Below are positions 23,008 through 63,068 of a stretch of DNA of 64,000 bases, piece after piece. The notes under the pieces are model-generated. The model saw only the letters and a list, made by a program, of their open reading frames with translations, did not search any database and had not been told where the DNA came from. Origin of the DNA: Candidatus Methanomethylicaceae archaeon (GTDB taxonomy: Archaea > Thermoproteota > Methanomethylicia > Methanomethylicales > Methanomethylicaceae); the NCBI GenBank assembly GCA_015660995.1, contig JACTUC010000003.1, forward strand, positions 30,525 through 94,524, in the 5' to 3' direction. The position numbers and the translations under genes are program-made. The stretch's first letter is position 1; every line of letters begins with the position of its first letter.

Positions 23008-23008
23008 A

Positions 23009-24067: not shown

Positions 24068-24873
24068 GAATCGCCATTAAGATGGGAGGGGACCTCCTCA
24101 AGGGCGAGAGCCTGAACACACCCCTGCTTGAGGACCTCAAGTCCGTAGCGAAGGAGCACAGCATCATAATAGTGCACGGCGGTGGCGACCTTGTCACAGA
24201 GATGGCTAAGAGGCTGGGCAAGGAGCAGGTCTTCGTTATTTCCCCAGAGGGGTTCAAGAGCAGGTTCACGGACAGGGAGACCGCTGATATTTACGCGATG
24301 GTCATGGCCGGCGAGATCAGCACAAAGATCGTCGGGACGCTCCAGTCGTTCGGGATAAACGCCGTTGGGCTATCTGGCTTCGATGGCGGCCTCCTGAGGG
24401 CGGAGAGGAAGAAGCGCCTCGTGGTAGTGGGCGATCAGGGAAGAAAGATGGCGATTGATGGAGGCTATACAGGCAAAATTGTCTCGGTAAATGGCAGGTT
24501 GCTGGAAGCATTGATGAAGGAGGGCTACACGCCTGTGGTCTCGCCACTTGCTATGGGCTTGGAAAATGAGCCACTAAATGTAGATGGCGACAGGACGACA
24601 GCTGCCGTGGCGGCTGCGGTAAAGACCGATGTAATACTGTACCTGACCGATGTCTCGGGTGTGCTCAAGGATGGCAAGGTAATAGGGAAGATAAGCGCGC
24701 TCGATGTGGAGGGTCTGCTCAAGGAGATCGGCCCAGGGATGAGCACAAAGATCCATGCGGCGGTAGAGGGGATACGGGGAGGGGTAGGCAAGGCAATAAT
24801 AACCTCAGGACTCACAGAGAGACCCCTCACAGGCGCGCTTGAGGGGAGATGTGGCACGGTGATTTCACTATGA
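24064..24873 (+). CDS. lysZ: LysZ/ArgB-type amino-acid kinase (acetylglutamate kinase family)
   Basis: Amino-acid kinase fold (IVHGGG...), 269 aa. Overlaps neighbours by 4 nt. Confidence 0.8.
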   Translation: MRIAIKMGGDLLKGESLNTPLLEDLKSVAKEHSIIIVHGGGDLVTEMAKRLGKEQVFVISPEGFKSRFTDRETADIYAMVMAGEISTKIVGTLQSFGINAVGLSGFDGGLLRAERKKRLVVVGDQGRKMAIDGGYTGKIVSVNGRLLEALMKEGYTPVVSPLAMGLENEPLNVDGDRTTAAVAAAVKTDVILYLTDVSGVLKDGKVIGKISALDVEGLLKEIGPGMSTKIHAAVEGIRGGVGKAIITSGLTERPLTGALEGRCGTVISL

Positions 24874-26051
24874 GCAGATTGGAAGACACTTTCTTGGCGG
24901 ACACATTCTGGAAGCGCCCGATTACCCTTACGAGGGGCATGGGCGACAGGGTCTGGGATTCCGATGGCAAGGAGTACATAGACTGCAGCTGCGGGTATGG
25001 TGTCGCTTTGTTAGGTCACTGCAACCCGAGGGTCGTGGAGGCGATGAGGAGGCAAAGTGAAAAGCTCCTGACGTGCCACGGATCCTTCTACAGCGACGCA
25101 AGGGAAGAGTGCCTCTCAAGGCTCTCGAAGATCAAGCCCGAGGGGACTGACAAGGTATTCTTGAGCAACTCGGGAACTGAATCTGTGGAATCCGCAATGA
25201 AGCTTGTGCGCAGGTTCACGAAGAAGAAGAGCTTCATTGCGACTGTCGGGGGTTACCATGGCAAGACAATGGGTGCCCTCTCTCTAACATGGGCGGCCAA
25301 ATACAGGGAGCCATTCATGCCGCTCCTTGAAGGCGTGAAGTTTGCCCCATATGGCAAGGCTGATAAGATCAGGGAGCTTGTCGATGAGAATACAGGAGCG
25401 GTCTTCGTCGAGCCGGTGCAGGGAGAAGGAGGGATAATTACACCGCCTCCGGACTACCTGAAGGCTGTGAGGGAGGTGTGCGATGAGAAGGGCGTGCTGC
25501 TCGTGCTCGACGAGGTCCAGTGCGGCTTCGGTAGGACAGGCAAAGTGTGGGCGCACCAGCACTTTGGTGTAAAGCCAGACATTCTCTGTTCTAGTAAGGC
25601 GTTGGGAGGGGGCATGCCGATAGCAGCCACATTCGCTAGGGCGGACATAATGGATTCGATCAAGAGGGGGGAGCACTCCAACACATTCGGAGGGAACCCT
25701 CTGGCCTGCGCAGCCTGCACCGGGGCAGTTGACGCCCTGCTTGGGGACGGGCTTCTACAGAACGCCACCGAGATGGGCGCGCTGTTCAAGAGGGGCTTCG
25801 AAGCTGTCGACAGCAGGATGATCCGCGAGGTGAGGGGCCTCGGGCTGATGCTGGGCATTGACATGCGCTTCGAGGTAATGAACATCATACTCAGCTCTCT
25901 CGAAAGGGGGGTGATCGTGCTCGAGGCCGGGAAGACTGTCCTGAGGCTGCTCCCGCCACTTATAATAACGAAGCAGGACGTCGAGAGGGTAGTTGAAGTC
26001 GTGAGCATTGCGATAAAGGTAGAGGAGAAGAAGAGAGCACCTGGTGCATGA
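24870..26051 (+). CDS. lysJ: LysJ/ArgD-type class III aminotransferase (acetylornithine aminotransferase family)
   Basis: PLP class III motifs (DEVQCGFGRTG, SSKALGGG). ATGA overlap with the lysZ stop. Confidence 0.85.
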   Translation: MSRLEDTFLADTFWKRPITLTRGMGDRVWDSDGKEYIDCSCGYGVALLGHCNPRVVEAMRRQSEKLLTCHGSFYSDAREECLSRLSKIKPEGTDKVFLSNSGTESVESAMKLVRRFTKKKSFIATVGGYHGKTMGALSLTWAAKYREPFMPLLEGVKFAPYGKADKIRELVDENTGAVFVEPVQGEGGIITPPPDYLKAVREVCDEKGVLLVLDEVQCGFGRTGKVWAHQHFGVKPDILCSSKALGGGMPIAATFARADIMDSIKRGEHSNTFGGNPLACAACTGAVDALLGDGLLQNATEMGALFKRGFEAVDSRMIREVRGLGLMLGIDMRFEVMNIILSSLERGVIVLEAGKTVLRLLPPLIITKQDVERVVEVVSIAIKVEEKKRAPGA

Positions 26052-27177
26052 TCGTATGGATGTTGGATACCCCGAGAGCCTTCTTCTCAGGATGCTTGAG
26101 ATCTACAGCCCAAGCGGGGGGGAGGGGAAGATCTCGAAAGTTCTGGCTAAGGAGATAGTGGGCCTTGGGTTCAACGTAAGTGTGGACGGAGTGGGCAATG
26201 TGCTGGGCAAAGCTGGGGAGGGTTCGCCCAAGGTGCTACTGTGCGGCCACATGGACACCATCGAGGGAGCACTTGAGGTGAAGAAGAGGGGAAGAGTGAT
26301 ATTCGGTAGGGGGGCAGTGGACGCGAAGTCACCGCTTGCTGCTCTGATCTGCGGCGCTGCAAAGCACATAGAGGAGGGAAGGAAGGGGACTGTCCACGTG
26401 CTTGCGGTCATTGACGAAGAGGGCAAGAGCAGGGGGATGAAGCATTTTCTCTCCAACTGCAAGGAAAGTTATGATTACGCGATATTCGGTGAGCCCAGCG
26501 GAGCCTATGCGGTCACTGTAGGCTACAAGGGCAGGCTTGTATTGAAAGCCATGGTTAAGACAACGCCCGGCCACGCAAGCGCTCCGCAGCTTTTTGAGAA
26601 TGCGGTCTACGTTGCAATGAGGCTTGTAGGAAGGCTCAGGCTGCTTGAGGCGGTGTGGACAGGTGATGGTAAGAAGAGCCTTTTCGAGGTGCCTACGCTC
26701 TGCGTCACGTGCTTTAGGGGAGGGGCACAGGACAATACGGTTCCATCAGAATGCGAGGTCACAGTTGATGTGAGGGTGCCTCCTTCGCAGAGCCTGAATG
26801 AGATCAAGGGAAAGCTGATTGAGACCATAGAAGATTTCAGGGACGGAGAGAAGAGAGCTGAGATCGAGGTCGCCTTCGCTGACGAGAACGAGCCATATCT
26901 TGAGAATTCAAGATCGAAACTCGTCAAGGCATTCGTAAAGTCAATCAACGGAGTGAGCGGAAGGGAAGGGCGGCTCTCGCATAAGACAGGAACAGGGGAC
27001 GTTAACGACTTTGTGAAAAAGTTCAAAACCTCAGCCGTAGTTTACGGGCCTGGAAATTCTAAGCTTGACCACACACCCCTGGAGAATATCTCGCTGACAG
27101 AGTACCTTGACAGCATAAGCATCGTCGAAGCTGTGCTTAAGCGGATTTCAGCAGATGCCACGAAGAAACAAGCATAA
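26044..27177 (+). CDS. lysK: LysK/ArgE-type M20 metallohydrolase (LysW-lysine/ornithine hydrolase)
   Basis: M20 peptidase motifs (GHMDTI, GAVDAKS, DEEG). GTG/ATG start overlapping the lysJ stop. Confidence 0.75.
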   Translation: MHDRMDVGYPESLLLRMLEIYSPSGGEGKISKVLAKEIVGLGFNVSVDGVGNVLGKAGEGSPKVLLCGHMDTIEGALEVKKRGRVIFGRGAVDAKSPLAALICGAAKHIEEGRKGTVHVLAVIDEEGKSRGMKHFLSNCKESYDYAIFGEPSGAYAVTVGYKGRLVLKAMVKTTPGHASAPQLFENAVYVAMRLVGRLRLLEAVWTGDGKKSLFEVPTLCVTCFRGGAQDNTVPSECEVTVDVRVPPSQSLNEIKGKLIETIEDFRDGEKRAEIEVAFADENEPYLENSRSKLVKAFVKSINGVSGREGRLSHKTGTGDVNDFVKKFKTSAVVYGPGNSKLDHTPLENISLTEYLDSISIVEAVLKRISADATKKQA

Positions 27178-48862: not shown

Positions 48863-49631
48863 TGATCCTTAATATAAGTAACTATGGTGCTGACAGTCAC
48901 AGTTTCATTCTCCCAATAAAAAATCCAACTAGGCGCAATTATACTGTAAGCCTCAAAAGGTTGAATATAGAAGATGATCCCTTACAATTTCACAGTTTAA
49001 GCATTGTTATTGAACTTTAGGAATTGGCTTGGCTGGGTTTGACCCACGACCAGCAAGATAAAGCTGCAAACTATTGGAAAATCATCGAAGCTCTTGCATC
49101 TTCTTCAAAATTTCGTTGTATCCCAACAGCCTGCAGGATTCACAGTGCTTTTCAATGTGAACTGTCTTGTTGCTCTCGCACCACCAATAATCTTTGATCC
49201 TCCAATCGTCTCTTTTCAATTCTTTTCATTCTCCACTTTTTTCTGTTTTACTATTTCTTCTTTGATCCGATCCAGACCAATTCTTCCTTCTCAGGTTTCT
49301 GATAGATACTCTGAGATTCTTAGTTTCCTGGAAGATTACTGCTTCCAGTGTGAACTTGATTCTGGTATAAGTTCACCACAACTCCAGCTTCCTAGTAGGA
49401 GTCGATAATGATAAGGTCGACTGTTCGCTCATGGAGCAAGACGAAAGTAATATCCGGTGACTCACATGAAGTGACTCATTCTTAGTTTCGCAAAAAAATT
49501 ACTGATGGATTTTGACGCATTACTCTATGCGTGGAAGGTAGGTGATCTACCACTGCAAAGTTCCTCCTTCTGCGAAATATGATAGCACGCCTTATTTTGA
49601 AGTTAACAAATAGTAATGTTTGGTGTGGTCA

Positions 49632-50180
49632 ATGAACCCGAAAATTCTGACAGATAACGCCAGGATACTCAAGAATATACCCAGGACAGGCTGGCTTCAG
49701 CGCGGAATACCGCTCTCTGTAGCGGAGACCGTGGCTGAGCACTCATTCGAAGTGGCATCCATACTCGCGGTAATATCAATGGAAGCGGGGGGAGGTCTTG
49801 ACAAGGAGAAGCTTCTGATAATGGGAACTATTCACGACTGGGGGGAGGCGGTGGCTGGGGATATACCCAGGTCACTCACCAAGAGGTTGGGAAAGGAAAC
49901 AAAAAGCAAGGCAGAGATGAAGATAATGAAAGAACTCTCCGCTGCAAGCGGGTCCAAGAGGCTCGCGCAAATCTTCGAGGAGTATGAGGGAGGGAAGAGC
50001 GTTGAAGCAGTAGTGGCAAAGATAGCAGACGTGCTCTCCACCCTCAGGCAGGCAAAAGCATACTCGGATAGGGGTTACCATGTGGAGGACATAGTATCGG
50101 GATGCAAGGAAGAACTCAACGAGCTCCTGGAGCGGATCAGCAGCGAGGGATTAAGGAGAATAATAAGAAAGCTCCAATGA
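49632..50180 (+). CDS. HD-domain phosphohydrolase (YfbR-like 5'-nucleotidase family)
   Basis: AEHSF...HDWGEAVAGD HD motif. Confidence 0.7.
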   Translation: MNPKILTDNARILKNIPRTGWLQRGIPLSVAETVAEHSFEVASILAVISMEAGGGLDKEKLLIMGTIHDWGEAVAGDIPRSLTKRLGKETKSKAEMKIMKELSAASGSKRLAQIFEEYEGGKSVEAVVAKIADVLSTLRQAKAYSDRGYHVEDIVSGCKEELNELLERISSEGLRRIIRKLQ

Positions 50181-50241: not shown

Positions 50242-50508
50242 ATGAGCAAACCCGATAAGAAAAAGGATGAGCCGGATAATGAAAAGTTCATTATGCCTAT
50301 ACCGGCTGGTGTCCCTTACTCCATCCTTGCCCAGGCGGTAAACAAGTTCGGCATAGAGTTGGTTGAGAAAGAAGTTGTTCTGCCAGGATCGGCGGGGGAC
50401 GAGATTGTTCCCAAGGCATGGGTTCTTCGGGGCGATAAGGAAGGCCTTGGAAAGGCCAGGGAGTTCATCGCAAAGAAGATCTTGGAATCGATGAGAAGGT
50501 TCGAGTAG
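50242..50508 (+). CDS. Small hypothetical protein
   Basis: 88 aa. No assignable family. Confidence 0.3.
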   Translation: MSKPDKKKDEPDNEKFIMPIPAGVPYSILAQAVNKFGIELVEKEVVLPGSAGDEIVPKAWVLRGDKEGLGKAREFIAKKILESMRRFE

Positions 50509-50520
50509 GATAGGAAAAAA

Positions 50521-51030
50521 TCACTTTTTGGCCTTGAACTTCTCGGAGATCCTCTTGTCCTCTTCGACGATCTCAGCCTTGTAGTCCTCAATTATCCTGG
50601 AAAAAGAGCTCAAGAGCAGCTGCTCAATAGCCCTGCCAATGGACATCCCGTAGTTTTCGCACAGTGCGCTGATTTCTTGAGAATTGGCCTCGAGGAAGGG
50701 CACGATTGGTTCGCTCATGGCATCCGAAAGCATTTTGACGGTCTTTCTCTTCGGGTACCCCCCGAACCTCTCGAGGGATAACTCGAGTGCATAGAGATCG
50801 GAGCGGCTGTCGGTTGAGATTATTCTCCTTACCAACCCAAGCTCACGGAGCCTGTCAAGCCTCTTTATGAGGGCATCTTCCTTCACTTTTAGGATCTCAG
50901 CCATGCTTTCTTGCGTCATTGGCCCGTCTTGCAGAAAGAACATCACTTCCCTTAGTTCTTCGTCCATGTATGCATTTGCGAAGCCTAGCAGCTTCTCTTC
51001 AGGAATTACGAGTGTTACCATTTTTATCAC
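50521..51030 (-). CDS. Winged-helix transcriptional regulator, last gene of the mcrC operon
   Basis: wHTH segment (ESMAEILKVKEDALIKRLDRLRELGLVRR). 32-nt overlap with the upstream ORF. Confidence 0.5.
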   Translation of the reverse strand: MIKMVTLVIPEEKLLGFANAYMDEELREVMFFLQDGPMTQESMAEILKVKEDALIKRLDRLRELGLVRRIISTDSRSDLYALELSLERFGGYPKRKTVKMLSDAMSEPIVPFLEANSQEISALCENYGMSIGRAIEQLLLSSFSRIIEDYKAEIVEEDKRISEKFKAKK

Positions 51031-51469
51031 CTAGAGTCTTGAGGAACGTTCTTATCTTTGAGAGCATTACCTTGGCCTCCTCCTCGTTGCCAGGATAGGG
51101 GACTTTGATGAACGGGATCTTCTTCTGTGTAATCAGGTATATGAGGAACTCGTTAGTCCTTGCACAACTGGCGCACCCGAACAGCGCCTCGGACTCCTCC
51201 ACAATTATGGCGGCATCTGCCTCCTCGACCAGCGGGGCCATGAGCGCCAGTCGCCCCCTTACTCCTGATGGAACCTCTATGGCGACCCACTTGAGCCCCC
51301 GCCTCGGGAAGTCAGGGGTAATGTTCATAGGAGGCGAGTCGAGCTCGGGCTTGTTCAGGTTCTTTGACACCTCTTCACCGAGCCCCAATGGGGTATGACC
51401 CTCCCTCTTTACGAGATCGTAGAGTATTAGGCTATTGGGCGGGAATATGAATATCTTGGCCACTCGCAT
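50999..51469 (-). CDS. Uncharacterized protein co-transcribed with mcrC (candidate methanogenesis-associated protein)
   Basis: Strong SD-like GGAGGAG directly upstream of the ATG at 51469. Overlaps the mcrC 3' end by 38 nt. Contains a FGCASCARTNE motif. Confidence 0.4.
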   Translation of the reverse strand: MRVAKIFIFPPNSLILYDLVKREGHTPLGLGEEVSKNLNKPELDSPPMNITPDFPRRGLKWVAIEVPSGVRGRLALMAPLVEEADAAIIVEESEALFGCASCARTNEFLIYLITQKKIPFIKVPYPGNEEEAKVMLSKIRTFLKTLGDKNGNTRNS

Positions 51470-52115
51470 CTCCTCCTCTAGGCAGTTCTCCGCTTTCGAT
51501 CTTGCCTAGCCAGAACTTGGTCTTTATCACTATCTCATTGAGCTTCTCCCTGGGCGCGCTGACCCCCCTCACAACGCCTGTAATGAGGTCGACTATTTCG
51601 CCAGCGCACTCGACCTTCCCAGGAGGGGGCCTTACCAGCCGCGTTATTATACCTACCCTTGCGAAATCCTCATAGTCGACGGGAGCTTCACAGACAATAA
51701 TAATCGGAATGTCAACGAAGTGCAGGAAAGACTTCGCCTTGTGTACAACGTGCCCACCTATGCCACCCAGGTGGAACAGACCAAGTTTGAACCTTCTGAT
51801 CTGCATTATCTCCTTCTCGTTTATTGTTGCCATGGAACCTCCGGGTGCACCACTATAGGGCGAATCTGCCGGGATGCCTGAGCCGGAATCCAGCACAAGG
51901 ACACTGGTCCTTATTCCCTGTTCGCGGAGTCCATATGTGATCTCACAGACGGGTTTTGTGATGTGCCTCTTGCCCGGGGACATCGCGATCGCCACCACCT
52001 CGAACTTCTCGGACTCGGAGATAGTGCCTCGCTGCGCGAGGCCTCCACCCTCGCCCATACCTTGGGCTTCCCTGCAATCGACTATCTGGACGTTTCTACC
52101 CAGGGCATCCTGCAA
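51432..52115 (-). CDS. mcrC: Methyl-coenzyme M reductase operon protein C (McrC)-family protein
   Basis: N-terminal IVDCREAQGMGEGGGLAQRGT and AMSPGKRHITKPVCEITYGLRE blocks are characteristic of McrC. TTG start. Confidence 0.65.
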   Translation of the reverse strand: MQDALGRNVQIVDCREAQGMGEGGGLAQRGTISESEKFEVVAIAMSPGKRHITKPVCEITYGLREQGIRTSVLVLDSGSGIPADSPYSGAPGGSMATINEKEIMQIRRFKLGLFHLGGIGGHVVHKAKSFLHFVDIPIIIVCEAPVDYEDFARVGIITRLVRPPPGKVECAGEIVDLITGVVRGVSAPREKLNEIVIKTKFWLGKIESGELPRGGDASGQDIHIPAQ

Positions 52116-52156
52116 TCCGCTTACCTCGAGACAGTGTTAATAGCACAAACAGTCCT

Positions 52157-52501
52157 TTAACGCTTCTTTCGGGTATTCCTTTGGTACTCCCTTATGTAAT
52201 CCTTGACCGTAGGTTTAGGTTTTGTGAAACGCCCGTAGCGTACGTCATAGCCATAGGGCATCATCTGATCCATGACAGGTTTCAGCTTTGCAACAATAGC
52301 TTCAGCGTCGGTGCCCTCTTTTAAGATAACTATGAAGTGACCGACGAGAAAACCACCGCCACGCCAGTTGTGTGTCTTTACGCCGACGTCGGAGACCTCC
52401 TCCATGTCCTTTATTATCTGGACAAATTCGTCGGATTTCTTCCGTTCCATGAGTCTTCGGGGCAAGATGTCAATATCAGGAGTTCCTGAATAATCAGGCA
52501 T
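52157..52501 (-). CDS. Uncharacterized small protein, first gene of the mcrC-side operon
   Basis: 114 aa, ATG start at the divergent promoter. No family assignable. Confidence 0.35.
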   Translation of the reverse strand: MPDYSGTPDIDILPRRLMERKKSDEFVQIIKDMEEVSDVGVKTHNWRGGGFLVGHFIVILKEGTDAEAIVAKLKPVMDQMMPYGYDVRYGRFTKPKPTVKDYIREYQRNTRKKR

Positions 52502-52568
52502 AAGATGTTACCTTGCGTATAGATTTAATTAACCTTTATTAAATTAATGCTATGTCGGTGAGAGGTCG
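52502..52568. promoter_or_regulatory. 67-bp bidirectional promoter region between divergent MCR-activation operons
   Basis: AT-rich with TATA-like TTTAATTAACCTTTATTAAATTAA. SD-like GGTGAGAGG before the mmp3 TTG start. Confidence 0.4.
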
Positions 52569-54095
52569 TTGAGGGTATCAATAGACGGCAAGCAGGTTGA
52601 GGTCGAGCCCAGCACAACGATAGGTTCTGTGGCGAAGACTCTAGGAATAGAACTTGCAACCGGTTGCATATTGGCAGTGAAGAAGGAAGTCGAAGGCGAG
52701 AAGGTCCAGACCAACCTGTACGAGGTTTACACATCAAAAGGGAAGATGGTAATCAGGATAGAGTGCGAAAAGATCCTCGACGGCTGGCGAAAGACATTCA
52801 AGAAGTTCGAAGGCACAGGCATAAGGTGGGTCACAAGGGATGCGGTAGTCTTTGGCCCCATCGTCAGCGACTTCGAGCCTTCCAGGGAATCAGTTGAGCT
52901 CAGGCAGTACGAGATCACCCTAAGCCTTGGTGGCTATAGCAGCGATAACACTCACCTTGTCTTCGGCCGCAGGCTACACAGTAGCTTATACGCGCCGCCC
53001 AAGGGGTGCGGGGTGCTAGGTAGAGTCGTATATGGTAGGCATCTAGTTGACGAGCTGAAGATGGGAGACAGGATTGTCAAGGTTGAGCCAGTCATAGAGA
53101 TAAAGACCGGCGAAGGCGCGGTCTTCAAGGCTGACAGGGGTTATCAGATCAAGGAGCCGGTCCAGATCTTCACGAAGCTCGGGATCGAGCTAGATGGTGC
53201 ATCGCCCTTGAGTGGGGAGCTCGTGTATAAGGTCACAGGCAACGACATGCTGACCATTGACAGGATAACAAGCAGGTTCGTAGCGTGCGACAGCATGAGC
53301 ATGGGTGCCCTGGCTAGCGAGAGGCAGGAAAGGAGGTCCAGGGGGATCGTTACTGTGAGGAATTCGGGAGCCAATTCGGGCTCGGTTTACGTTTATTTGA
53401 AGGAGGCTGCTCTGACCCTTGCGCACAATATAGCTGGCAGGGTGATGGAAGGCATGGAGCTTGCCGACGTCACGGAGAACGGCGATAGGATATCAGTGAA
53501 GGTATCTCCTCAAATGCTTAGTCTACTGGGCAGGACGCAAAAAGACTCAGGGGAGTTGCTGAAGAGCCGCGGGATCAAGCAGAAAAGGAGCGGTGACTCT
53601 TCGGACAGTGCTATTGTGGTCGAGCAGGACCCGCCGACCACCCTGGAGCTTTTGGCAAAGGGCGAGGCCACGTGCTTTGGGGTAAAACCCTCGGAGCTGA
53701 TCGGCATCCGCCTCTTTGGCAAGGAGGCTCCTAATTCCGTGAGGTATTTCAGGCGACTTACCGGGTTGGAACTGAGGAAGACGGGCAAGATGACGGTCTA
53801 TTTTACGACGCCCAAGTCTGAGATGATACTCTTCAAGGGCGACGAGGTCATGGCAAAGGAACTCCTGCCAGAGAACGTGCCCGAAAGGAAGGTTGGCGCG
53901 AACATTCTGGGGGTGACAAACGCGGTGAAGAAGTTTGCGGGAATGGTGGGTGTGCGCTTCACTGAGAGTGCCGAGTTTGGCCCGACGGCAGAGAAGTTCG
54001 AGGGGACAAACATCATCGGGGAGGTCGTGGCTAACCTGGAGGGAGTGAAGAAGCTGGGCGGGAAGAAGACGGTATACATCGCGGAGGTAAAATGA
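52569..54095 (+). CDS. Methanogenesis marker protein 3-like (UPF0288 family)
   Basis: 508 aa, size and composition fit Mmp3. Located in operon with atwA. Confidence 0.55.
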   Translation: MRVSIDGKQVEVEPSTTIGSVAKTLGIELATGCILAVKKEVEGEKVQTNLYEVYTSKGKMVIRIECEKILDGWRKTFKKFEGTGIRWVTRDAVVFGPIVSDFEPSRESVELRQYEITLSLGGYSSDNTHLVFGRRLHSSLYAPPKGCGVLGRVVYGRHLVDELKMGDRIVKVEPVIEIKTGEGAVFKADRGYQIKEPVQIFTKLGIELDGASPLSGELVYKVTGNDMLTIDRITSRFVACDSMSMGALASERQERRSRGIVTVRNSGANSGSVYVYLKEAALTLAHNIAGRVMEGMELADVTENGDRISVKVSPQMLSLLGRTQKDSGELLKSRGIKQKRSGDSSDSAIVVEQDPPTTLELLAKGEATCFGVKPSELIGIRLFGKEAPNSVRYFRRLTGLELRKTGKMTVYFTTPKSEMILFKGDEVMAKELLPENVPERKVGANILGVTNAVKKFAGMVGVRFTESAEFGPTAEKFEGTNIIGEVVANLEGVKKLGGKKTVYIAEVK

Positions 54096-54547
54096 TGATC
54101 AAGACTTATCTGGCGATGCTCTCGACCGACTCGAACCTGACGCCTTCCATGCTGGCAGAGAAGGTAGCGACCATTGGAGGGGTGGAGTACAAGGAGACTT
54201 GCTATGGCCTGCTGCTGGAGGGGGAGGAGGAGACTCTCGAGAAGGTCATGGATGAGCTCAGGAGGATGGATCCCAACAGGATCTTCTTCAAGGTAAGGGG
54301 TTACAAGATAGGGGACGCAAGGATCTGTAGGGCCAAGAGGGGAGGTGGACCAAGGCCTGGATACCACGTGCTTGGCGTCGAGAGGGAAGCCTTGAAGAAC
54401 GTCTCCAAAGCGCTGGACAGCTCCGAACTGCCGACCTATGCCGAGAAGAAGAAGGGGAAGCTGAACGTGGATTCACTGAAGAAGATCATCGAGAAGGAAG
54501 AACCGAGAGAGGAAAAGGGAAAGATAGACGGAGGGAAGAAGGATTAG
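54092..54547 (+). CDS. Methanogenesis marker protein 6-like
   Basis: 151 aa with RICRAKRGGGPRPGYH motif. 4-nt overlap with the upstream gene. Confidence 0.45.
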   Translation: MMIKTYLAMLSTDSNLTPSMLAEKVATIGGVEYKETCYGLLLEGEEETLEKVMDELRRMDPNRIFFKVRGYKIGDARICRAKRGGGPRPGYHVLGVEREALKNVSKALDSSELPTYAEKKKGKLNVDSLKKIIEKEEPREEKGKIDGGKKD

Positions 54548-54584
54548 GATCGTTGCAGTTTCCACGGACAGCGTCGGTGGGCAG

Positions 54585-55094
54585 ATGTACGAGTACATAG
54601 CCAAGAAGACTCTTGAGGATCTGGCGCTTGGGGGCAGCGTAACTGGACTCAAGATGTGCATGCGCTCCGAGATACCCCTCTTCATCATAAAGATCAAGTT
54701 CAGGGAGGCTATGGGTAAGAATGCACTAGGCGGTCTCGCCAATATCGAGGAACGCGAGAACGGATCCAAGATAACCCTCGAAAGTGAGATCGATCTTGGC
54801 GATGCCCTCAAGACACTGTGGAGCACCTTCGGGAGAGACAAGGTCGAGCAGTCCGGGAGGACGGACATTATTGTGTCCGGCGTTGCGCCAAAGGACCTCC
54901 GGGATTTGAAGATAAGGGACAAGGCAATTGACGTCCCAGCTAGGATAAACGAACTCGCAGCAAGAATCATACCCGAGGGTCTGAGGGTCAGGAGCATAAT
55001 CAGAGAGCCCGGGGTCATGACATTCATAGCTGCGGAGGACCCAATGAGGGAGGAGTGGAAGGATATGGGGCGGAAGCTGGAGGTCGACGAGTAA
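54585..55094 (+). CDS. Methanogenesis marker protein (Mmp17- or Mmp5-like), uncertain
   Basis: 169 aa. Operon position between the mmp6-like and mmp7-like genes. Confidence 0.35.
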   Translation: MYEYIAKKTLEDLALGGSVTGLKMCMRSEIPLFIIKIKFREAMGKNALGGLANIEERENGSKITLESEIDLGDALKTLWSTFGRDKVEQSGRTDIIVSGVAPKDLRDLKIRDKAIDVPARINELAARIIPEGLRVRSIIREPGVMTFIAAEDPMREEWKDMGRKLEVDE

Positions 55095-56002
55095 TGCTCA
55101 AGTACATAATATTTGAGGGGGGACTATACAAGCACGAGATCCTGGAGGAGTTCCTGGAGGACATAGGTGGCTTCATAGTGCAGAGGGTCTCCGTGAGCCT
55201 AGATCTCATACTGAACCTTGCGGTCCCTGAGGAGGAGGTACAGAGGCTGAACGATATCGCTGTAGGGTTGAAAGGCAAGCTTAAGGAAGCCCCACTCATA
55301 GGGACGGAGGTCGCTGTGGTCGCACCGACGCTCTCTCGCCACCACTTGCCACACCCGTCATGCGACGTAGCGGAGAACCTCAGGCGGTATGGGGCGAAGA
55401 CCAATATCATCGGGCTGGCTAGGGGCGTCGGCCAGAAGATTGTCAATAGATCCACGAGAGAGAAGGAGCTCATAGAGGAACACGACCTGGCAGTCTTTAC
55501 TCTTGGCAACTTCGAGCATTGCCTAAAAGAAGCAAAGCTTCCGCTCTTCAAGGACCTGTCGATACCTGTAATCGTCACTGGCGGCCCTTATTTCAACGGC
55601 CTGCCAGGAGCACAGGGCTATGTCGGGGGAATAGGCAGGTTCCCGGAGAGAGCGAGGACGGGCGATCTGATAGAGAGGCTGAATGCGGTCTCAGAGCTCT
55701 CCGGGAAGGTCGTGGAGCAGAGGAGGCGTGAGCTGGACCTCGATCCACTGATTGTTAACCCCATTGTCGTGAAGGAGGAAGTGGAGAGGCAGGTGCCGGA
55801 GGCTGAAGAGGGTCTCTCCCCCAACCCGATAACACTTAAGGTCGAGGGGGTTAGGATAAAGCTGCCATACGACGAGTACCATGAGAAGGTCGAGGGGATC
55901 AAGGTCGAGGGGAGAAGGCTTGGCGACATCGCAAATATCAGCAAGTCGCTCATGAGAGACTACATCCTTGTCCGCGTACTGCCGGAGTCAATGTTCAAGT
56001 GA
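55094..56002 (+). CDS. Methanogenesis marker protein 7-like
   Basis: About 302 aa from the ATG overlapping the upstream stop (TAATG). Size fits Mmp7. Confidence 0.4.
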   Translation: MLKYIIFEGGLYKHEILEEFLEDIGGFIVQRVSVSLDLILNLAVPEEEVQRLNDIAVGLKGKLKEAPLIGTEVAVVAPTLSRHHLPHPSCDVAENLRRYGAKTNIIGLARGVGQKIVNRSTREKELIEEHDLAVFTLGNFEHCLKEAKLPLFKDLSIPVIVTGGPYFNGLPGAQGYVGGIGRFPERARTGDLIERLNAVSELSGKVVEQRRRELDLDPLIVNPIVVKEEVERQVPEAEEGLSPNPITLKVEGVRIKLPYDEYHEKVEGIKVEGRRLGDIANISKSLMRDYILVRVLPESMFK

Positions 56003-56012
56003 GGTATTTGAG

Positions 56013-57680
56013 ATGGTCTTAAGAGTGGAGTCACTTAGCAAACGGTACAGTTCGGATAATGTCACCGCCCTTGATTCGGTGAGCTTCAGTGTCAAGACGG
56101 GAGAGATAGTCGGCATCATCGGGGAGAGTGGGGCGGGCAAGACCACGCTCCTTAGGATCCTGAGGGGCGCGGAACCCTTCGACAGCGGCAGGATCTGCTT
56201 CGATAGGATGGTTATAGAACCATCGTCTCCCCAATCTGCCGTGATGGAATTCCAGAGGAAGACCGCGATACAGCTACAGCGTAGCTTCGGGCTCTGGCCT
56301 GAGAGCGCCCAGGACAATATTGTCAGGGCATTACGCTATGTTGACATCGGTGAGGAGAGCTTCCCCGACGACGAGGGTGAGGTGAGAGAATATCGAAAAA
56401 AGGCGATGGAGATACTGAAGGTCGTCGGTCTGGAGGGGAAGGCGAACCTATGGTCACAAGTCCTCAGCGGGGGCGAGAAGCAGAGGCTCATAGTGGCGAG
56501 GCAGATAGCGCGGAAGCCGAAGCTCCTGCTACTTGACGAGCCGGGGACCATGACAGACCCTGCCAGCAGGAAAGCGCTCGTGGAGACTCTGAGGCGCGTG
56601 AGGGACGAACTGAATACTAGCATCGTATTCGCATCGCACAACCCCCAGATGCATAGGGCTCTAGCGGACAGGATCCTGCTCCTCGAGAAGGGGAGGATCA
56701 AGGACGACGGGAAGACAGAGAAGGTCCTGAAAGAGTTCCTGTCGGGTCTGGAGAAGCCACTGGAGAAGGAGAAAATCCCCGGGCCCACAGTCATGAAGAT
56801 GGTCCATGTCTCGAAGATTTATGACTTATTCTCCTATGGCAGAGTATTTGAGCTCCTGGACACGAACCTCGAGTTCAGGCGTGGGGAGATAGTTGGCATA
56901 GTTGGACCCTCCAGCGCTGGCAAGACAGTTATACTGAGGATGATGGCTGGGTTGGAGCTCCCGGACACTGGTGAGGTCAAACTTCTCCACAAGGGAGAGT
57001 GGGTGGCATTGGGTAAGTTTGGTAGGAAGAGCCTCCATGCCAGGACCCATATTGGCATGTTACACCAGGAGTTCGATCTGTCGTATTGGGCGAGAGTCCT
57101 TGACCTCTTCGCTGCCCGCCTCGGGATGAAGGACCCGAAGATGATGGAAGCTGCCCTCAGGAGGGGAGAGAAGGCTGGGATAAAAGATGAGGTAGTGGAC
57201 GCACTCAGCAGGGCTGCCGAACTTCCGGAGAGCGAGATGGAGGAGAGGCTGAGGGAGATAGGCCTAGACCGTGAGGTCCTTAAGCAGCTCTTCAAGAGCA
57301 AGGATCCGGAGAAGGCGAAGGATGTGGCCCTGGCAGCGCTCCAAGAAATGGGGCTGGACAGGGGAATTCTAGATAGGTACGTCTATGAGCTCTCGGGAGG
57401 TGAGAAGATCAGAGTGGCTTTAGCGCTTTCCCTCGTATTCAACCCCGAGGTCCTGTTACTGGATGAGCCTTTTGGTGACTTGGATCCCCTTACGCTGCGC
57501 AAGGTCGCAAACTCCCTGAAGAGGGTCAAGAAATCCTTCAGGCCGGCGATAGTCATCGTCAGCCACCAGCTCGATTTCGTAGAGGAGGTGGCGGACAGGT
57601 GCATCCTAATAGCTGAAGGAAAAGTTATAATGGAGGGAGACCCCTCAAAAGTTATCAATCATTTCAACGGGAGTGCCTAG
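56013..57680 (+). CDS. atwA: Methyl-coenzyme M reductase system component A2 (AtwA), tandem ABC-type ATPase
   Basis: Two nucleotide-binding domains, each with Walker A (GESGAGKTT; GPSSAGKTV), signature (LSGGEKQRL; LSGGEKIRV) and Walker B. No TM domain. Confidence 0.8.
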   Translation: MVLRVESLSKRYSSDNVTALDSVSFSVKTGEIVGIIGESGAGKTTLLRILRGAEPFDSGRICFDRMVIEPSSPQSAVMEFQRKTAIQLQRSFGLWPESAQDNIVRALRYVDIGEESFPDDEGEVREYRKKAMEILKVVGLEGKANLWSQVLSGGEKQRLIVARQIARKPKLLLLDEPGTMTDPASRKALVETLRRVRDELNTSIVFASHNPQMHRALADRILLLEKGRIKDDGKTEKVLKEFLSGLEKPLEKEKIPGPTVMKMVHVSKIYDLFSYGRVFELLDTNLEFRRGEIVGIVGPSSAGKTVILRMMAGLELPDTGEVKLLHKGEWVALGKFGRKSLHARTHIGMLHQEFDLSYWARVLDLFAARLGMKDPKMMEAALRRGEKAGIKDEVVDALSRAAELPESEMEERLREIGLDREVLKQLFKSKDPEKAKDVALAALQEMGLDRGILDRYVYELSGGEKIRVALALSLVFNPEVLLLDEPFGDLDPLTLRKVANSLKRVKKSFRPAIVIVSHQLDFVEEVADRCILIAEGKVIMEGDPSKVINHFNGSA

Positions 57681-57681
57681 A

Positions 57682-59589
57682 ATGGACTGCGAAGTCAGGT
57701 TCCTCCCCGAGGGCAAGAGGAGTACGGTGCCCGAGGGGTCGACAATAATGTTTGCAGCGATAGAGAGCGGGGTCGACCTTTCCAATATCTGCAGCGGCAA
57801 GGGATACTGCGGGAAGTGCATTGTGGAGGTACTGAATGGAGAGCTGTCACCGCTGACTGATCAGGAGAAGAAGAGGATCCCGCCTGAGAAGCTGGCCAAG
57901 GGCTATAGGCTCGCCTGCCAAGCCCATATCGCAGGTGACGTCGTGGTGAGGGTGCCAGACCAGAGCAGGGCGGGTAGGCAGCGCCTCGTCATAATGGGCA
58001 AGGAGCCGCCGGTGACGCTCAAACAGAATGTAGAGAAGGTATATGTGGAGCTGGTTGCACCAACCCTCCAAGATCCAATGGCGGATGACGAGCGCCTTCT
58101 CAGGGCACTTGCAGAAAAGGGGTACGGCGGGCTGAAGGCGGACTTCATAATAACCAAAGAGCTACCGAAGGTGCTGCGGAAGAGTGGCTGGAAAGCCACT
58201 GTAACGATCCTTGGGAAGAAAGAAATAGTTAACATTCAGGCAGGTGACACGAAGACCCAGAACTTTGGCGTGGCAGTAGATATTGGAACCACTAAGCTGG
58301 CCGTCTTCCTAGTTGATCTCACTGATGGCAACCTGATATTCGCAGATGGTATGATGAACCCTCAGATAAGGTACGGTGAGGACGTCATCTCTAGGATCAA
58401 CTTCGCCACGCAGGGTGAGAAGGAGCTCAAGGAAATACAGAGCACGATCATCGGTGGCATCAACGAACTCATTTGCAAGGGAGTTGGAGAAACGGCGATA
58501 GATGCGCAGGACCTGTATGAGCTAGTTGCGGTCGGAAACACCGCAATGCACCACCTGTTTGTGGGGATGCAGATCAAGAGCCTAGGCCTCTGCCCATACC
58601 CTGCCGGCCTGGGAAGAGCCTATGACATCAAATCCAGGGAGATGAACATTGCGATCAACCCTTCAGGCAACGTTCACGTGCTCCCGAACCTGGCAGGCTT
58701 CGTCGGGGCGGACGCTATCGCTGATATCCTTGCGTCGAGGCTTCACGAGAAGGAGAAACTTACTCTGCTCATGGACGTCGGGACCAACACCGAGGTCATG
58801 CTCGGCAGCAGGGATGGCATCTGGTCCTGCTCCACGGCTTCTGGTCCGGCATTCGAGGGAGCACACATAAAGTGCGGCATGAGGGCAGCTACTGGCGCTG
58901 TGGAGAAGGTAAAGATAACGCCTGAGTTCGACGTGACCTACAAGACAATTGAGGATGAAAAAGCACGCGGCATCTGTGGCTCGGGTATAATCGACGCGGT
59001 GGCGGAAGCACTGAAAAGCGGTGTCATTGACACTTCTGGGAAGTTTATCCTTCAAGGCCACAAGAGGGTCAAAGGGGAGGGTGCTGCCAAGGAGTTCATC
59101 CTGATATACAAGGATGAGACCTCGACTGGGAAGGAGGATATTGTGCTAACACAGGATGATGTGAGGGAGATACAGAAGGCCAAGGCCGCAATGTACGGTG
59201 GCTACGCGACGCTTATGAGAAAGGCAGGTTTTAAGAAGGATGATCTAAACGAGATCGTGATCGCCGGAGCCTTCGGGAACTATATAGACCCGTCCAGCGC
59301 AAGGACCATCGGCATGATACCCGAGATACCACTGGAGAAGGTATCCTTCCTCGGCAACACAGCTGGCTCGGGCGCGAGGATGTGTCTAAAGTCGCTAGAC
59401 AAGAGACGGGAAGCCCAAGAGATCAACGACAAGATGAAGTACATCGAGCTGGCAGTTGAACCGATATTCGAGGAGGAGTACATCAATGCAATGTATATGC
59501 CAAACAGCAGGCTCGAGGAGTACCCCGAGACCGTGAAGGGGATAAGAGGACCAATGAATGTAAGGCGCTACGTCCGAAGATCGGTTTAG
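57682..59589 (+). CDS. RACE/RamA-type ATP-dependent reductive activase: N-terminal plant-type [2Fe-2S] ferredoxin plus ASKHA (DUF4445) ATPase domain
   Basis: Cys pattern C-x5-C-x2-C...C (NICSGKGYCGKC...LAC). DUF4445/COG3894 motifs DIGTTKLAV, VGNTAMHHLF, LMDVGTNTEV, GPAFEGAHIKCGMRA, ICGSGIIDA. Start is 2 nt after the atwA stop. Confidence 0.8.
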   Translation: MDCEVRFLPEGKRSTVPEGSTIMFAAIESGVDLSNICSGKGYCGKCIVEVLNGELSPLTDQEKKRIPPEKLAKGYRLACQAHIAGDVVVRVPDQSRAGRQRLVIMGKEPPVTLKQNVEKVYVELVAPTLQDPMADDERLLRALAEKGYGGLKADFIITKELPKVLRKSGWKATVTILGKKEIVNIQAGDTKTQNFGVAVDIGTTKLAVFLVDLTDGNLIFADGMMNPQIRYGEDVISRINFATQGEKELKEIQSTIIGGINELICKGVGETAIDAQDLYELVAVGNTAMHHLFVGMQIKSLGLCPYPAGLGRAYDIKSREMNIAINPSGNVHVLPNLAGFVGADAIADILASRLHEKEKLTLLMDVGTNTEVMLGSRDGIWSCSTASGPAFEGAHIKCGMRAATGAVEKVKITPEFDVTYKTIEDEKARGICGSGIIDAVAEALKSGVIDTSGKFILQGHKRVKGEGAAKEFILIYKDETSTGKEDIVLTQDDVREIQKAKAAMYGGYATLMRKAGFKKDDLNEIVIAGAFGNYIDPSSARTIGMIPEIPLEKVSFLGNTAGSGARMCLKSLDKRREAQEINDKMKYIELAVEPIFEEEYINAMYMPNSRLEEYPETVKGIRGPMNVRRYVRRSV

Positions 59590-59605
59590 GAAAGTGTTTT
59601 GAAAA

Positions 59606-60160
59606 ATGGAAGGGCAAGATGCATGCGCGCGTGCGGAGGAAGCCATGAGGGCGCTCAAAGGGATCTTGAAGGTCCAGCTTCTCACCGACGAGGACAGGAA
59701 GGAGCTCTCGAGGCTGGAGCAGGAAGCGGAGGGCAAAGTGATGATGGGGCTCTGCCCCGGGACGAACGTTGGCATCGCTGAAGCCTTGAAGAAGAAGCAT
59801 ATCTTTGCCTGTATTACTGACAACACCATGGTCTGGCCCCGCAGCTCGTACATAAAGCTCGTCTGTGGCGAGGATGTGATCGGCCAGGACATATATGACG
59901 AGTCTGAACTCGAGAAGATGAAGAGCGAAGGCAATCTAGTTGCAGGCAACTTAGTTTTTTACAGGAACAAGATCAAGGTTCTGAAGGAGCGGAGGGAGGG
60001 AATGATGGTGCATATGCTGCCCATGCAAATACCAGAGCTAACCGCATGCGGCGCGGTTGTGGCCAGCCCGTCACCACCCACGGACCTATACCTGAAGAAT
60101 AGGCTCGGGCAGAATACAGAGGACAGCCGTCTTGGTTCGATAATAGTGGGCGTGGACTAG
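59606..60160 (+). CDS. Uncharacterized protein, last gene of the atwA-side operon
   Basis: 184 aa, soluble, Cys-containing (CPGTNVG, FACITDN). 16-nt gap after the RamA-like gene. Confidence 0.35.
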   Translation: MEGQDACARAEEAMRALKGILKVQLLTDEDRKELSRLEQEAEGKVMMGLCPGTNVGIAEALKKKHIFACITDNTMVWPRSSYIKLVCGEDVIGQDIYDESELEKMKSEGNLVAGNLVFYRNKIKVLKERREGMMVHMLPMQIPELTACGAVVASPSPPTDLYLKNRLGQNTEDSRLGSIIVGVD

Positions 60161-61046: not shown

Positions 61047-61550
61047 ATGTGGACAGAGATCGTAAAGTTTTTTTCAGCCTCCCCTTCGAAACTTAAGGTT
61101 GCGAGGCTCATGGTGGAACTCGGTTTCAGCATAAATACTGAAGGCAAGATTAGCTGTGGAGAGGTGGAGATCCCTGATTCGAGCATAGCCCGTGCGACCA
61201 ATGCGGATAGGCGGGTAGTAAGGGAAACCATAAAGGACATACTCGCAGATGCCAGGATGAAGAGGATATTTGTCGGTATTAAGCCCGCGGGGAGTTTTCT
61301 AATAGATGTTGCGCCAACGCTTGGCTATGCTGTTGTCGAAATTAGGGCGCGCCCAGATGCGGTTGGGGTGATAGCTAAGGCCACTGGGTTAATAGCTGAA
61401 GCTGGCCTTTCAATAAGGCAGATCCTCGCCGAAGACCCTGACCTGAACCCTGATCCAAAACTCCTTATAATCACCGAGAAAAGGGTTCCGGGAGAGGTAG
61501 TATCCAAGCTTCTCAACATTCCTACGGTGACAAAGGTTTCCATTAGTTGA
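61047..61550 (+). CDS. ACT-domain protein (predicted regulator of amino-acid metabolism, COG2150-like)
   Basis: 167 aa. C-terminal ACT-like beta-alpha-beta-beta-alpha-beta region. Confidence 0.45.
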   Translation: MWTEIVKFFSASPSKLKVARLMVELGFSINTEGKISCGEVEIPDSSIARATNADRRVVRETIKDILADARMKRIFVGIKPAGSFLIDVAPTLGYAVVEIRARPDAVGVIAKATGLIAEAGLSIRQILAEDPDLNPDPKLLIITEKRVPGEVVSKLLNIPTVTKVSIS

Positions 61551-61700: not shown

Positions 61701-63068
61701 CTAGATGCGAGCATTATAGGGCAGATCGTTCAGCGAAAGTTCCTTTGGTTCGCTATTGTTCACAAGCCTTCCATCGAGGTATTCTCCATAACCGCCTAGA
61801 TCGAGCAATCCGTGCCCGCTCAGGTTGAAGAGAAGGATCTTCTTCTCGTTTCTCTCCTTGCACTGCCTCGCGAGATCTATCACTGTGCAGATGGCGTGAG
61901 CGCTCTCGGGCGCGGGGACTATGCCTTCGCACTGGGCGAACATCCTCCCGGCGTCAAAGACCTCGCGTTGACCAACCGCAACTGGTGTAATCCTTTTATT
62001 TTTCACGAGGACACTCATCGTGGGAGCCTTTCCGTGATAGCGAAGACCGCCTGCATGGATGGGCGGGGTTACAAAGTTGTGGCCCACAGTGTACATTGGG
62101 AAAAGCGGCGTCATGCCAGCGGTATCACCGTAGTCGTAGGTGTAGACACCCCTCGTGAATGATGGAACGGCCTTGGGCTCGACGCATATGAACTCAGCAT
62201 CGCACTTTTTGTTGAGCTTATCGTAGATGAAAGGATAGCAGAGACCGGCGTAGTTACTCCCTCCTCCGACGCATCCTATAACGTAGTCAGGCTTCTTATC
62301 TATGAGCTCCATCTGCTTCCTGGCTTCCTGGCCAATAACGGTCTGGTGGAGCAGAACGAAGTTTGTCACCGACCCCAGCGAATACTTTGAGTGCGGGTCG
62401 TTCTTCACCGTCTCGATAGCTTCGCTGATGGCAACCCCCAAGCTGCCAGGGTGATTCGGCATCTCTGCTCGGAGTTTCCTCCCGAATTCGGTATTCGTGC
62501 TGGGGGAAGCATGGACCTCAGCGCCATAGAGCTCCATCAGAGTGCGCCTGTACGGCTTCTGATCGTGAGACGCCCGGGTCATGAAGACGGTGCACTTCAT
62601 ATCGAAGAACGCACAGGCAAGGGCAAGGGCAGTACCCCATTGGCCTGCTCCAGTCTCTGTGCAGAGCCTCTCAACGCCCTCCCTCTTGTTGTAGAAGGCC
62701 TGGGCGATTGCAGTGTTCCCCTTATGGCTGCCTAGCGGGGAGATACCCTCATACTTGTAGTAGATCTCGGCAGGGGTCTTTAGGTGATCCTCGAGTCTCT
62801 TTGCCCTGAACAATGGGGTCGGGCGGGACATCTTTATGAATATCTCGCGGACCTCGTCTGGGATCTGAATGAAGCGCTCGGTAGACACCTCCTGCATGAT
62901 GAGACCCTTTGGGAAGAACCATAGGTCCTCCAGGCCTGCTGGGGCTTTTGTTATCGGGTTTAGAGGCGGTGGGCAGGGCTCAGGCAGATCGGGTACTATG
63001 TTATACCAGAACTTTGGAATTTCATCGACCGGAAGGTCGACTCTCGTGTTCGTGCCAAAAACGGTCAC
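61701..63068 (-). CDS. trpB2: Tryptophan synthase beta chain, TrpB2 type
   Basis: PLP-lysine motif GSHKGNTA. 455 aa long form with TrpB2-specific N-terminal extension. GTG start. Confidence 0.85.

Follow-up and report, generated by a model that had tools for sequence, protein, structure and literature searches.

A divergent MCR activation gene cluster with a RACo-type activase gene in a Methanomethylicia archaeon

The closest described systems to the gene cluster reported here are the activation complex of methyl-coenzyme M reductase (MCR) and the MCR activation operon. Cryo-electron microscopy of the complex from Methanococcus maripaludis showed McrC, Mmp7, Mmp17, Mmp3, component A2 and a DUF2098 protein bound to McrABG, in an assembly that reduces F430 from Ni(II) to Ni(I) with ATP and that has three [8Fe-9S-C] clusters (PMC12176620). 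One of these is held by H49 and H118 of McrC and another by McrC C55 and C12, while the third is held by Mmp7 H84 and C143, with Mmp7 C90 close to the C55/C12 cluster (PMC12176620). The gene string atwA-mmp3-mmp6-mmp5-mmp15-mmp17-mmp7, which we will call canonical, is known as the MCR activation operon and is co-transcribed in Methanosarcina acetivorans (bioRxiv 10.64898/2026.03.18.712670). For McrD, loop-less variants have already been noted and the role of the wedge loop has been described (PMC10288656). We compared these systems with a cluster at positions 50,521 to 60,160 of a 64,000-nucleotide stretch (the window) from a Candidatus Methanomethylicaceae archaeon (GenBank assembly GCA_015660995.1, contig JACTUC010000003.1, positions 30,525 to 94,524 of the forward strand). 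We hold with moderate confidence that this region is the Methanomethylicia form of the MCR activation gene set, combined into a "reductive maintenance" unit for MCR and corrinoid proteins.

Activation genes in two divergent strings

The cluster encodes McrC, Mmp7, Mmp17, Mmp3 and a probable A2 together with Mmp5, Mmp6 and a loop-less McrD, which is the known MCR activation gene set. Mmp3 matched TIGR03268 over its full length (484.8 bits, cut-off 234), and five other proteins also scored above the cut-offs of their families: McrC (TIGR03264, 278.6 bits, cut-off 213.5), Mmp7 (TIGR03274, 396 bits, cut-off 349), Mmp5 (TIGR03271, 198.8 bits, cut-off 140.25), Mmp6 (TIGR03272, 133.3 bits, cut-off 126) and Mmp17 (TIGR03291, 96.7 bits, cut-off 67). 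The last three also matched Pfam families (PF09885 with 194.9 bits, PF09875 with 109.6 bits and PF09886 with 124.8 bits, respectively). In the PDB, McrC matched 8S7V_I/9H1L (E-value 4e-68), Mmp7 matched 8S7V_H (E-value 1e-81) and Mmp17 matched 8S7V_G (E-value 3e-16). C14, H51, C57 and H122 of our McrC align on C12, H49, C55 and H118 of M. maripaludis, the iron-sulfur cluster ligands, and all four are kept. The same holds for the Mmp7 cluster ligands H84, C90 and C143 in the alignment to 8S7V_H. We found 958 homologues of Mmp5, including proteins of Methanocella, Methanocaldococcus and Methanoliparum at 55-63% identity.

For the comparison of layouts we scanned with an Mmp5 alignment and kept one genome per species, which gave 80 loci (24 from Methanomethylicia and 56 from other methanogens). 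These were mapped with phmmer and hmmsearch, with the window proteins as queries. A2 is divergent: TIGR03269 is its best family, yet its 314 bits lie below the cut-off of 517. Its best PDB match is the A2 chain of 8S7V/9H1L with 225 bits, followed by another ABC protein at 147 bits. In the locus mapping, canonical A2 orthologues beside mmp3 scored 205-230 bits and other ABC open reading frames (ORFs) 50-90 bits, and the position of A2 next to mmp7 is conserved across loci. With such a score, the protein may be named in automated annotation simply as an ABC ATPase of no particular kind. Even in the PDB, the A2 chain of M. maripaludis is labelled OpuCA.

The 114-aa ORF at the head of the left string had been proposed as a new component. 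It matched PF02505 with 37.7 bits (gathering score 25), over profile positions 73-121 of 142 only, and reached 42.2 bits to TIGR03260, under the cut-off of 100. Against McrD structures in the PDB the E-values were 2e-6 (8W33) and 3e-4 (8GF5). The aligned parts are the N-terminal strand and a C-terminal stretch, 'pyGYdvryGRftKpkPTVkDY'. Residues 43-50 (about eight) replace the wedge-loop region of about 36 residues in McrD (8W33), and the C-terminal extension is missing. Judged by these alignments, the ORF encodes McrD in a loop-less form, a variant already on record.

The original prediction had counted four uncharacterized small ORFs in the cluster. Three of them are Mmp5 (its 156-aa ORF), Mmp17 and the short McrD, so that Mmp5 and Mmp17, for which lineage-specific substitutes had been suggested, are both present among the four. 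Most of the unassigned ORFs resolve to known families, and only the 184-aa ORF at the end of the right string (p184) does not. For Mmp17, the earlier 169-aa version starts at 54585. We favor the longer start because the TIGR03291 match begins at profile position 12, and the protein is more likely to have 181 aa than 169 aa by this alignment.

The claim of two gene strings diverging from a 67-bp gap, with the stated gene order, was borne out by the ORF map and the profile searches: the distance from the ATG of the mcrD-like gene to the TTG of mmp3 is exactly 67 bp. We took junction lengths from the gene calls on contig JBEKUN010000001.1 of GCA_049514975.1, not from the longest ORFs. By these calls neighboring genes overlap by 23, 32, 4 and 1 nt at four junctions and are separated by 41, 1, 10, 1 and 16 nt at the other five, and the starts of wHTH (the winged helix-turn-helix gene of the left string), mmp5, mmp17, mmp7, A2 and the RACo-like gene (Table 1) differ from those used before. 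The tight packing that had been described is real, but the figures of 4-38 nt for the overlaps were an artefact of longest-ORF starts. Scans of the region for Rfam families and tRNAs gave no matches.

All 24 Methanomethylicia loci have the same design, in which short mcrD, mcrC, mmp5 and (in some) wHTH diverge from mmp3, mmp6, mmp17, mmp7, atwA, the RACo-like gene and (in some) p184. The divergent pair of operons that had been proposed is not a chance layout, since it recurs in these 24 species-level loci. The short mcrD lies upstream of mcrC, with both beside mmp5, in all 23 informative loci, and the RACo-like gene follows atwA in 21 of 21. p184 follows the RACo-like gene less regularly (16 of 20 informative loci), as does wHTH after mmp5 (15 of 24). 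Where wHTH or p184 is missing, the absence is real, as the position is filled by other genes or there is no space. Homologues of the cluster proteins carry the names Candidatus Verstraetearchaeota, Methanomethylicota, Methanosuratincola and Methanomethylicus. Methanomethylicia (Verstraetearchaeota) are methyl-reducing methanogens of the Thermoproteota.

Elsewhere, co-directional forms of the canonical string occur in at least 30 euryarchaeal loci, in Methanocella, Methanoperedens, Methanobacteriaceae, Methanofastidiosa, Methanoliparum, ANME-2 and others. Some lineages have the complete string and others lack atwA, mmp3 or mmp7 within 10 kb; in Methanococci-type loci we found mmp5 alone. None of mcrC, mcrD, wHTH, RACo or p184 was found within 10 kb of the canonical loci (at least 30). 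Mmp15 shows the reverse pattern. The Methanocella protein, identified by TIGR03286 with 697 bits, found 44 ORFs in the non-Methanomethylicia loci when used as a query, and matched nothing in any of the 24 Methanomethylicia loci or in the 64-kb window. An Mmp15 N-terminus does occur in Methanosuratincola sp. (GCA_038801705.1), where it heads a 413-aa BcrAD_BadFG gene some 10 kb downstream and matches the N-termini of Mmp15 from Methanoperedens and Methanobacterium. This gene rules out the idea that the RACo-like protein replaces a lost Mmp15.

We conclude that the arrangement is specific to Methanomethylicia: a known system has been rearranged in this lineage and has gained three genes. In a limited search of the Verstraetearchaeota and Methanosuratincola literature we found no description of the cluster.

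The RACo-like activase and p184

The RACo-like protein begins with a plant-type [2Fe-2S] domain, continues with a linker and a middle domain, and ends in an ASKHA ATPase domain. All four Pfam matches were above threshold (Fer2, 40.8 bits; RACo_linker, 77.5; Raco_middle, 177.3; RACo_C_ter, 320.4), and the protein aligned over its full length to RACo of Carboxydothermus hydrogenoformans (PDB 3ZYY, E-value 1.9e-117). The four plant-type [2Fe-2S] cysteines and the ASKHA motifs 'DIGTT' and 'DVGTNTE' can be seen in the sequence. Profile searches agreed with the earlier claim that atwA is followed by a RamA/RACo-like gene and by a 184-aa ORF that matches no named family. The RACo-like gene is very likely co-expressed with A2, because the two are separated by 1 nt here and overlap by 11 nt in the gene calls of three relatives.

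p184 had no family match in Pfam or NCBIfam, and neither did any of 47 sampled members of its family against Pfam. The protein occurs verbatim on the GCA_049514975.1 contig JBEKUN010000001.1 and on peat-metagenome contigs. A word-based search found only 21 close relatives; exhaustive searching with a profile raised this to 154 representatives, each about 190 aa long. The contexts of the relatives are informative. Among the distant homologues, P0033 is found 4-13 nt behind a true RamA gene (TIGR04270, 724 bits; locus L013) and near a B12-binding/URO-D fusion; P0035 follows a RACo/AcsV-type gene, the pairing of locus L015, beside MtmB and pyl genes. There are no mmp genes near P0033 or P0035.

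We also scanned metagenomes with an alignment of the distant p184 subfamily, which gave 48 further loci that fell into 38 clusters at 90% identity. Of these clusters, 25 have a RACo/RamA-like ORF no more than 700 nt from the p184 homologue; in another two such an ORF is present, at 736 nt or adjoining a paralogue. When at least 3 kb of flank was available on both sides, only two clusters had no such ORF, and one of these has a B12-binding protein directly downstream. Other neighbors of the homologues include MtaB, an MtaA-like URO-D protein, a B12-binding protein, DUF1638 and MoxR-AAA/VWA pairs, and a sigma-54 activator among the neighbors shows that the family is also present in bacteria. Close relatives of our RACo-like protein (755-835 bits) are found in a RACo-p184 module beside MtmB/pyl and other corrinoid methyltransferase genes, without mmp genes. 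Because the family follows RACo/RamA genes, mostly where corrinoid methyltransferase genes are near and mmp genes are not, we take p184, on this comparative evidence, to be a partner of corrinoid reductive activases and not an Mmp substitute. The proposal that the 184-aa ORF is a new MCR component or substitute does not fit a family that tracks RACo/RamA genes.

The predicted fold of p184 is alpha/beta and weakly nitroreductase-like, with about half of the protein aligning, and there was no sequence match to any nitroreductase family. C50, C69 and C87 of p184 are invariant in the Methanomethylicia (mmp-operon) subfamily and not in the wider RACo/RamA-associated family (alignments A1 and A6); they may form a lineage-specific metal or redox site. 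In two loci (L012 and L131) p184 homologues follow a gene for a MoxR/CbbQ-type AAA ATPase and one for a VWA protein, with a RamA-like gene coming next in L131. Pairs of MoxR/CbbQ AAA and VWA proteins are typical of metal-cofactor insertion chaperones.

Table 1. Coordinates of the cluster genes and of the promoter region between them (positions in the window).
Feature	Positions	Strand	Remarks
wHTH protein	50521..51021	minus	166 aa; last gene of the mcrD-mcrC-mmp5 string
Mmp5 (methanogenesis marker 5, DUF2112)	50999..51463	minus	154 aa; TIGR03271, PF09885
McrC	51432..52115	minus	227 aa; TIGR03264
Short McrD homologue	52157..52501	minus	114 aa; PF02505
Divergent promoter region (putative)	52502..52568	no strand	67 bp
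Mmp3	52569..54095	plus	508 aa, TTG start; TIGR03268
Mmp6 (DUF2102)	54092..54547	plus	151 aa; TIGR03272, PF09875
Mmp17 (DUF2113)	54549..55094	plus	181 aa from upstream start; TIGR03291, PF09886
Mmp7	55094..56002	plus	302 aa; TIGR03274
Component A2 (AtwA), divergent double ABC ATPase	56013..57680	plus	555 aa; TIGR03269 best family
RACo/AcsV-type predicted ATP-dependent reductive activase	57682..59589	plus	635 aa; Pfam RACo domains
p184 (184-aa protein)	59606..60160	plus	unnamed family accompanying RACo/RamA activase genes

The putative promoter region, the winged-helix gene and the neighborhood

The region between the two strings has three AT-rich boxes, tataga at 52518-52523, tttaattaa at about 52524-52532 and tttattaaat at about 52535-52544. 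Such TATA-like boxes are conserved in L006, L008 and L010 and across the 24 loci. Shine-Dalgarno-like motifs lie 6-10 nt before both starts (GGTG/GGAG for mmp3, and the complement of CACC/TACC for mcrD). The shortest gaps among the relatives are 44-55 bp (L034 and L036-L038), and in these the canonical spacing of about 26 nt from TATA box to transcription start can be accommodated only by TATA boxes that each lie on the far side of the other, an arrangement that points to interdigitated core promoters for the two strings. Sigma-70 and terminator scans stayed at background level, and these models are not applicable to archaea.

In one clade without wHTH (L019, L020, L021, L024 and L029) the gap between mcrD and mmp3 is widened to 149-826 bp. 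The AT-rich boxes are duplicated at both ends of these gaps, and there is a TATAAAGGTTAATTAA element near mmp3 and a AATAAATAAATAG element near mcrD. A peat-metagenome contig (Ga0116137_1000774; L002:1-1500) is identical to the window from 52529 rightwards, that is, from the third AT-rich box through mmp3 and onward. On its left side, unrelated AT-rich DNA with a PIN-domain gene replaces the mcrD-mcrC-mmp5 string. The breakpoint falls inside the 67-bp region and reflects either a rearrangement or insertion at the strain level or a chimera made in assembly.

The wHTH protein consists of an ArsR/Phr-like winged helix (about residues 8-84) and a long helical C-terminal domain (92-164). Its sequence matches are marginal (ArsR, MarR and TFE profiles; HTH_5 with 23 bits). 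The fold and profile matches are to the DNA-binding ArsR/SmtB, MarR, Phr and PH1932 regulators, and the protein has the winged-helix fold. Conservation is higher in the C-terminal helical domain, which has invariant 'GR..EQLLLS.FS' and 'EEDK' motifs, than in the recognition helix. We found 11 homologues, all in Methanomethylicia, and the gene is present in none of the 56 loci of other methanogens. Wherever it is present its synteny is strict. Since the relatives include the deep-branching L040, the distribution suggests an old acquisition with later losses. The gene overlaps mmp5 by 23 nt and for this reason is probably translated from the same mRNA.

A regulator gene embedded at the end of the mcrC string had been predicted, and its retention in 15 of the 24 related loci supports this. 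It had also been called undescribed for this cluster, and we found no description in the literature that we searched, which was a limited search. Of the phrase "dedicated regulator", the conserved gene stands; its dedication is something we infer, and no operator distinct from the TATA-like boxes was found. As a wHTH operator we considered conserved inverted symmetry, but the only such symmetry is the opposed pair of TATA-like boxes, and loci without wHTH keep similar boxes.

Next to the wHTH gene, and converging on it with a 12-nt gap, is a gene for an 88-aa protein (50242-50508, plus strand) that has only a weak precomputed match to MJ0093. It adjoins the cluster in 22 of the 24 Methanomethylicia loci, even where wHTH is missing, and its usual neighbor is an HD/YfbR-like phosphohydrolase (49620-50180 in the window, plus strand). 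We considered the 88-aa protein as a DUF2098 subunit and rejected it, as it had no Pfam, NCBIfam or PDB match. Beyond p184, positions 61047-61550 (plus strand) encode a 167-aa ACT-domain regulator of the TrpY family (NF053754, 190 bits, cut-off 180), which adjoins a TrpB-like PALP enzyme (61701-63068, minus strand). A similar ACT-domain ORF follows the p184 homologue in L101, a locus free of mmp genes, so the RACo-p184-TrpY-like synteny extends beyond Methanomethylicia.

Farther away, positions 22153-27177 (plus strand) hold a LysX/ArgX-type amino-acid biosynthesis operon, with an AsnC-type regulator in front and genes for a RimK-like ATP-grasp protein, a semialdehyde dehydrogenase, an amino-acid kinase, an aminotransferase and an M20 peptidase. 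The rest of the examined stretch (about 20-41 kb) is housekeeping. Neither mcrABG nor methyltransferase genes were seen at 20-41 kb or within the 14 kb on the flanks of the cluster.

Proposed role and comparison with known systems

In the reading that we prefer, each gene string would be one transcript, and the shared promoter region would couple expression of the MCR activation machinery and the McrD chaperone with that of an ATP-driven module for Co(II)-to-Co(I) reactivation of corrinoids. The right string ends with the RACo-like gene and p184, a module that is also found by itself in other places, next to genes for corrinoid methyltransferases. A single unit would then serve to repair both tetrapyrrole metalloenzymes of methyl-reducing methanogenesis. 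p184 may be an accessory partner of the activase, with docking, cofactor handling or electron input as possible roles. The ArsR/Phr-like wHTH protein, made from the end of the mcrD-mcrC-mmp5 transcript, would most likely feed back on the shared promoter region.

Several points weigh against the combined unit. The RACo-like protein scored 509 bits to AcsV (NF040756, cut-off 800) and 161 bits to RamA (TIGR04270, cut-off 500). In the window, neither a gene for a corrinoid protein nor one for a methyltransferase lies close to the RACo-like gene, so the corrinoid role of the latter rests on homology and on the contexts of relatives. Class-wide coupling of RACo and atwA could equally mean a direct role in MCR activation. 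Across the 24 loci there is no conserved operator or palindrome besides the opposed TATA-like boxes. The cluster does not depend on p184 or on wHTH, each of which some clades lack. The division into operons and the placing of the promoter are predictions.

The main rival reading is that the RACo-like activase and p184 were recruited to MCR activation itself. ATP would then push low-potential electrons from the [2Fe-2S] cluster into the surface-exposed FeSIII at the Mmp7/Mmp17 interface, and the activase would be the missing electron donor. This would be important if true, and a transient extra ATPase may indeed act on the complex (bioRxiv 10.64898/2026.03.18.712670). The unbroken adjacency to atwA in Methanomethylicia, overlapping in three relatives, speaks for it, as do the scores under the AcsV and RamA equivalog cut-offs, the absence of mmp15 (the other ASKHA-type "activase" of the canonical operon) from the cluster and the whole window, and the p184 cysteines that are invariant only in the Methanomethylicia subfamily. 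We nevertheless think it unlikely. The same RACo-p184 module occurs beside corrinoid methyltransferase genes in loci without mmp genes, p184 also pairs with bona fide RamA, and Mmp15 was not lost, given the Mmp15-like gene in Methanosuratincola. A methyl-reducing methanogen needs a corrinoid activase in any case, as is established for RamA and RACo. We likewise give a low probability, and if anything a slightly lower one, to the proposal that the activase and p184, joined to the atwA operon, are an ATP-driven injector of low-potential electrons for the MCR activation complex, instead of or besides corrinoid reactivation. If it were true, a candidate for the physiological donor of electrons in the reduction of F430 from Ni(II) to Ni(I) would have come out of comparative genomics. 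Separately, the 184-aa family would count as a subunit of corrinoid reductive activases that is widespread in archaea and bacteria but has gone unrecognised.

The role of the wHTH protein is a separate matter. It is conceivable, though we doubt it, that the protein is not dedicated to this cluster and controls other genes, or that it is a co-expressed adaptor or subunit that does not bind DNA. The activation operon of M. acetivorans is reported to be constitutive (bioRxiv 10.64898/2026.03.18.712670). Nine of the 24 related loci lack the gene while their promoter regions keep the same kind of AT-rich boxes, no palindrome is conserved beyond those boxes, and the helical domain is better conserved than the recognition helix, all of which would suit such a role. 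Its fold and profile matches, on the other hand, are to DNA-binding regulators, and the strict synteny reaches the deep-branching L040. ArsR-type autoregulators are typically encoded in the operon that they control. As for the 114-, 156- and 184-aa ORFs being new MCR activation components or lineage-specific replacements of Mmp5 and Mmp17, we give this almost no credence. None of the three can be recognized by eye and the 184-aa ORF truly has no named family, but the 114-aa ORF is McrD-like, the 156-aa ORF is Mmp5, the neighboring 169/181-aa ORF is Mmp17, and the 184-aa family keeps company with RACo/RamA genes instead of mmp genes.

The MCR activation machinery was structurally defined only in 2025, in a euryarchaeon. 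The cluster is of interest because it shows how a cultured non-euryarchaeal class of methanogens arranges the same parts: McrD, McrC and the Mmp/A2 proteins share a divergent unit to which Mmp15 is not linked, and A2 is translationally coupled to a second activase of the ATP-driven reductive type. The 184-aa family is a guilt-by-association lead beside RamA/RACo across archaea and bacteria, with relevance to methylotrophic methanogenesis and acetogenesis.

Several known systems resemble single parts of the cluster. p184 can be compared with the nitroreductase-fold superfamily (which includes BluB and CblC/CblD), to which about half of it aligns in predicted fold without a sequence match. The wHTH protein resembles archaeal regulators of the ArsR/SmtB and Phr/PH1932 types, with a marginal sequence match and a family confined to Methanomethylicia. 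The McrD-like protein shares the N-terminal strand and the C-terminal beta-alpha-beta half of McrD, the MCR assembly chaperone (PF02505/TIGR03260; 8GF5, 8W33). It differs in having only 114 aa, in scoring under the NCBIfam cut-off and in being encoded beside mcrC and mmp5. The activase has the complete architecture of RACo/AcsV (3ZYY), with [2Fe-2S], linker, middle and ASKHA domains, although it scores under the curated cut-off and is encoded after atwA, not beside acs or methyltransferase genes. Unlike RamA (TIGR04270), which has a C-terminal domain with two [4Fe-4S] clusters, it carries its iron-sulfur domain at the N-terminus, as a [2Fe-2S] domain.

The cluster as a whole is closest to the MCR activation operon and complex. 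It differs in having two divergent strings where the operon is single and co-directional, in the move of mmp5 beside mcrC, and in mmp15, which lies outside the cluster and not between mmp5 and mmp17. mcrC and mcrD sit here instead of in the mcrBDCGA operon, A2 falls under its curated cut-off, and wHTH, the RACo-like gene and p184 have been added. What the two have in common are the tightly linked genes for orthologues of McrC, Mmp7, Mmp17, Mmp3, Mmp5 and Mmp6 and for a probable A2, with the cluster ligands of McrC and Mmp7 kept.

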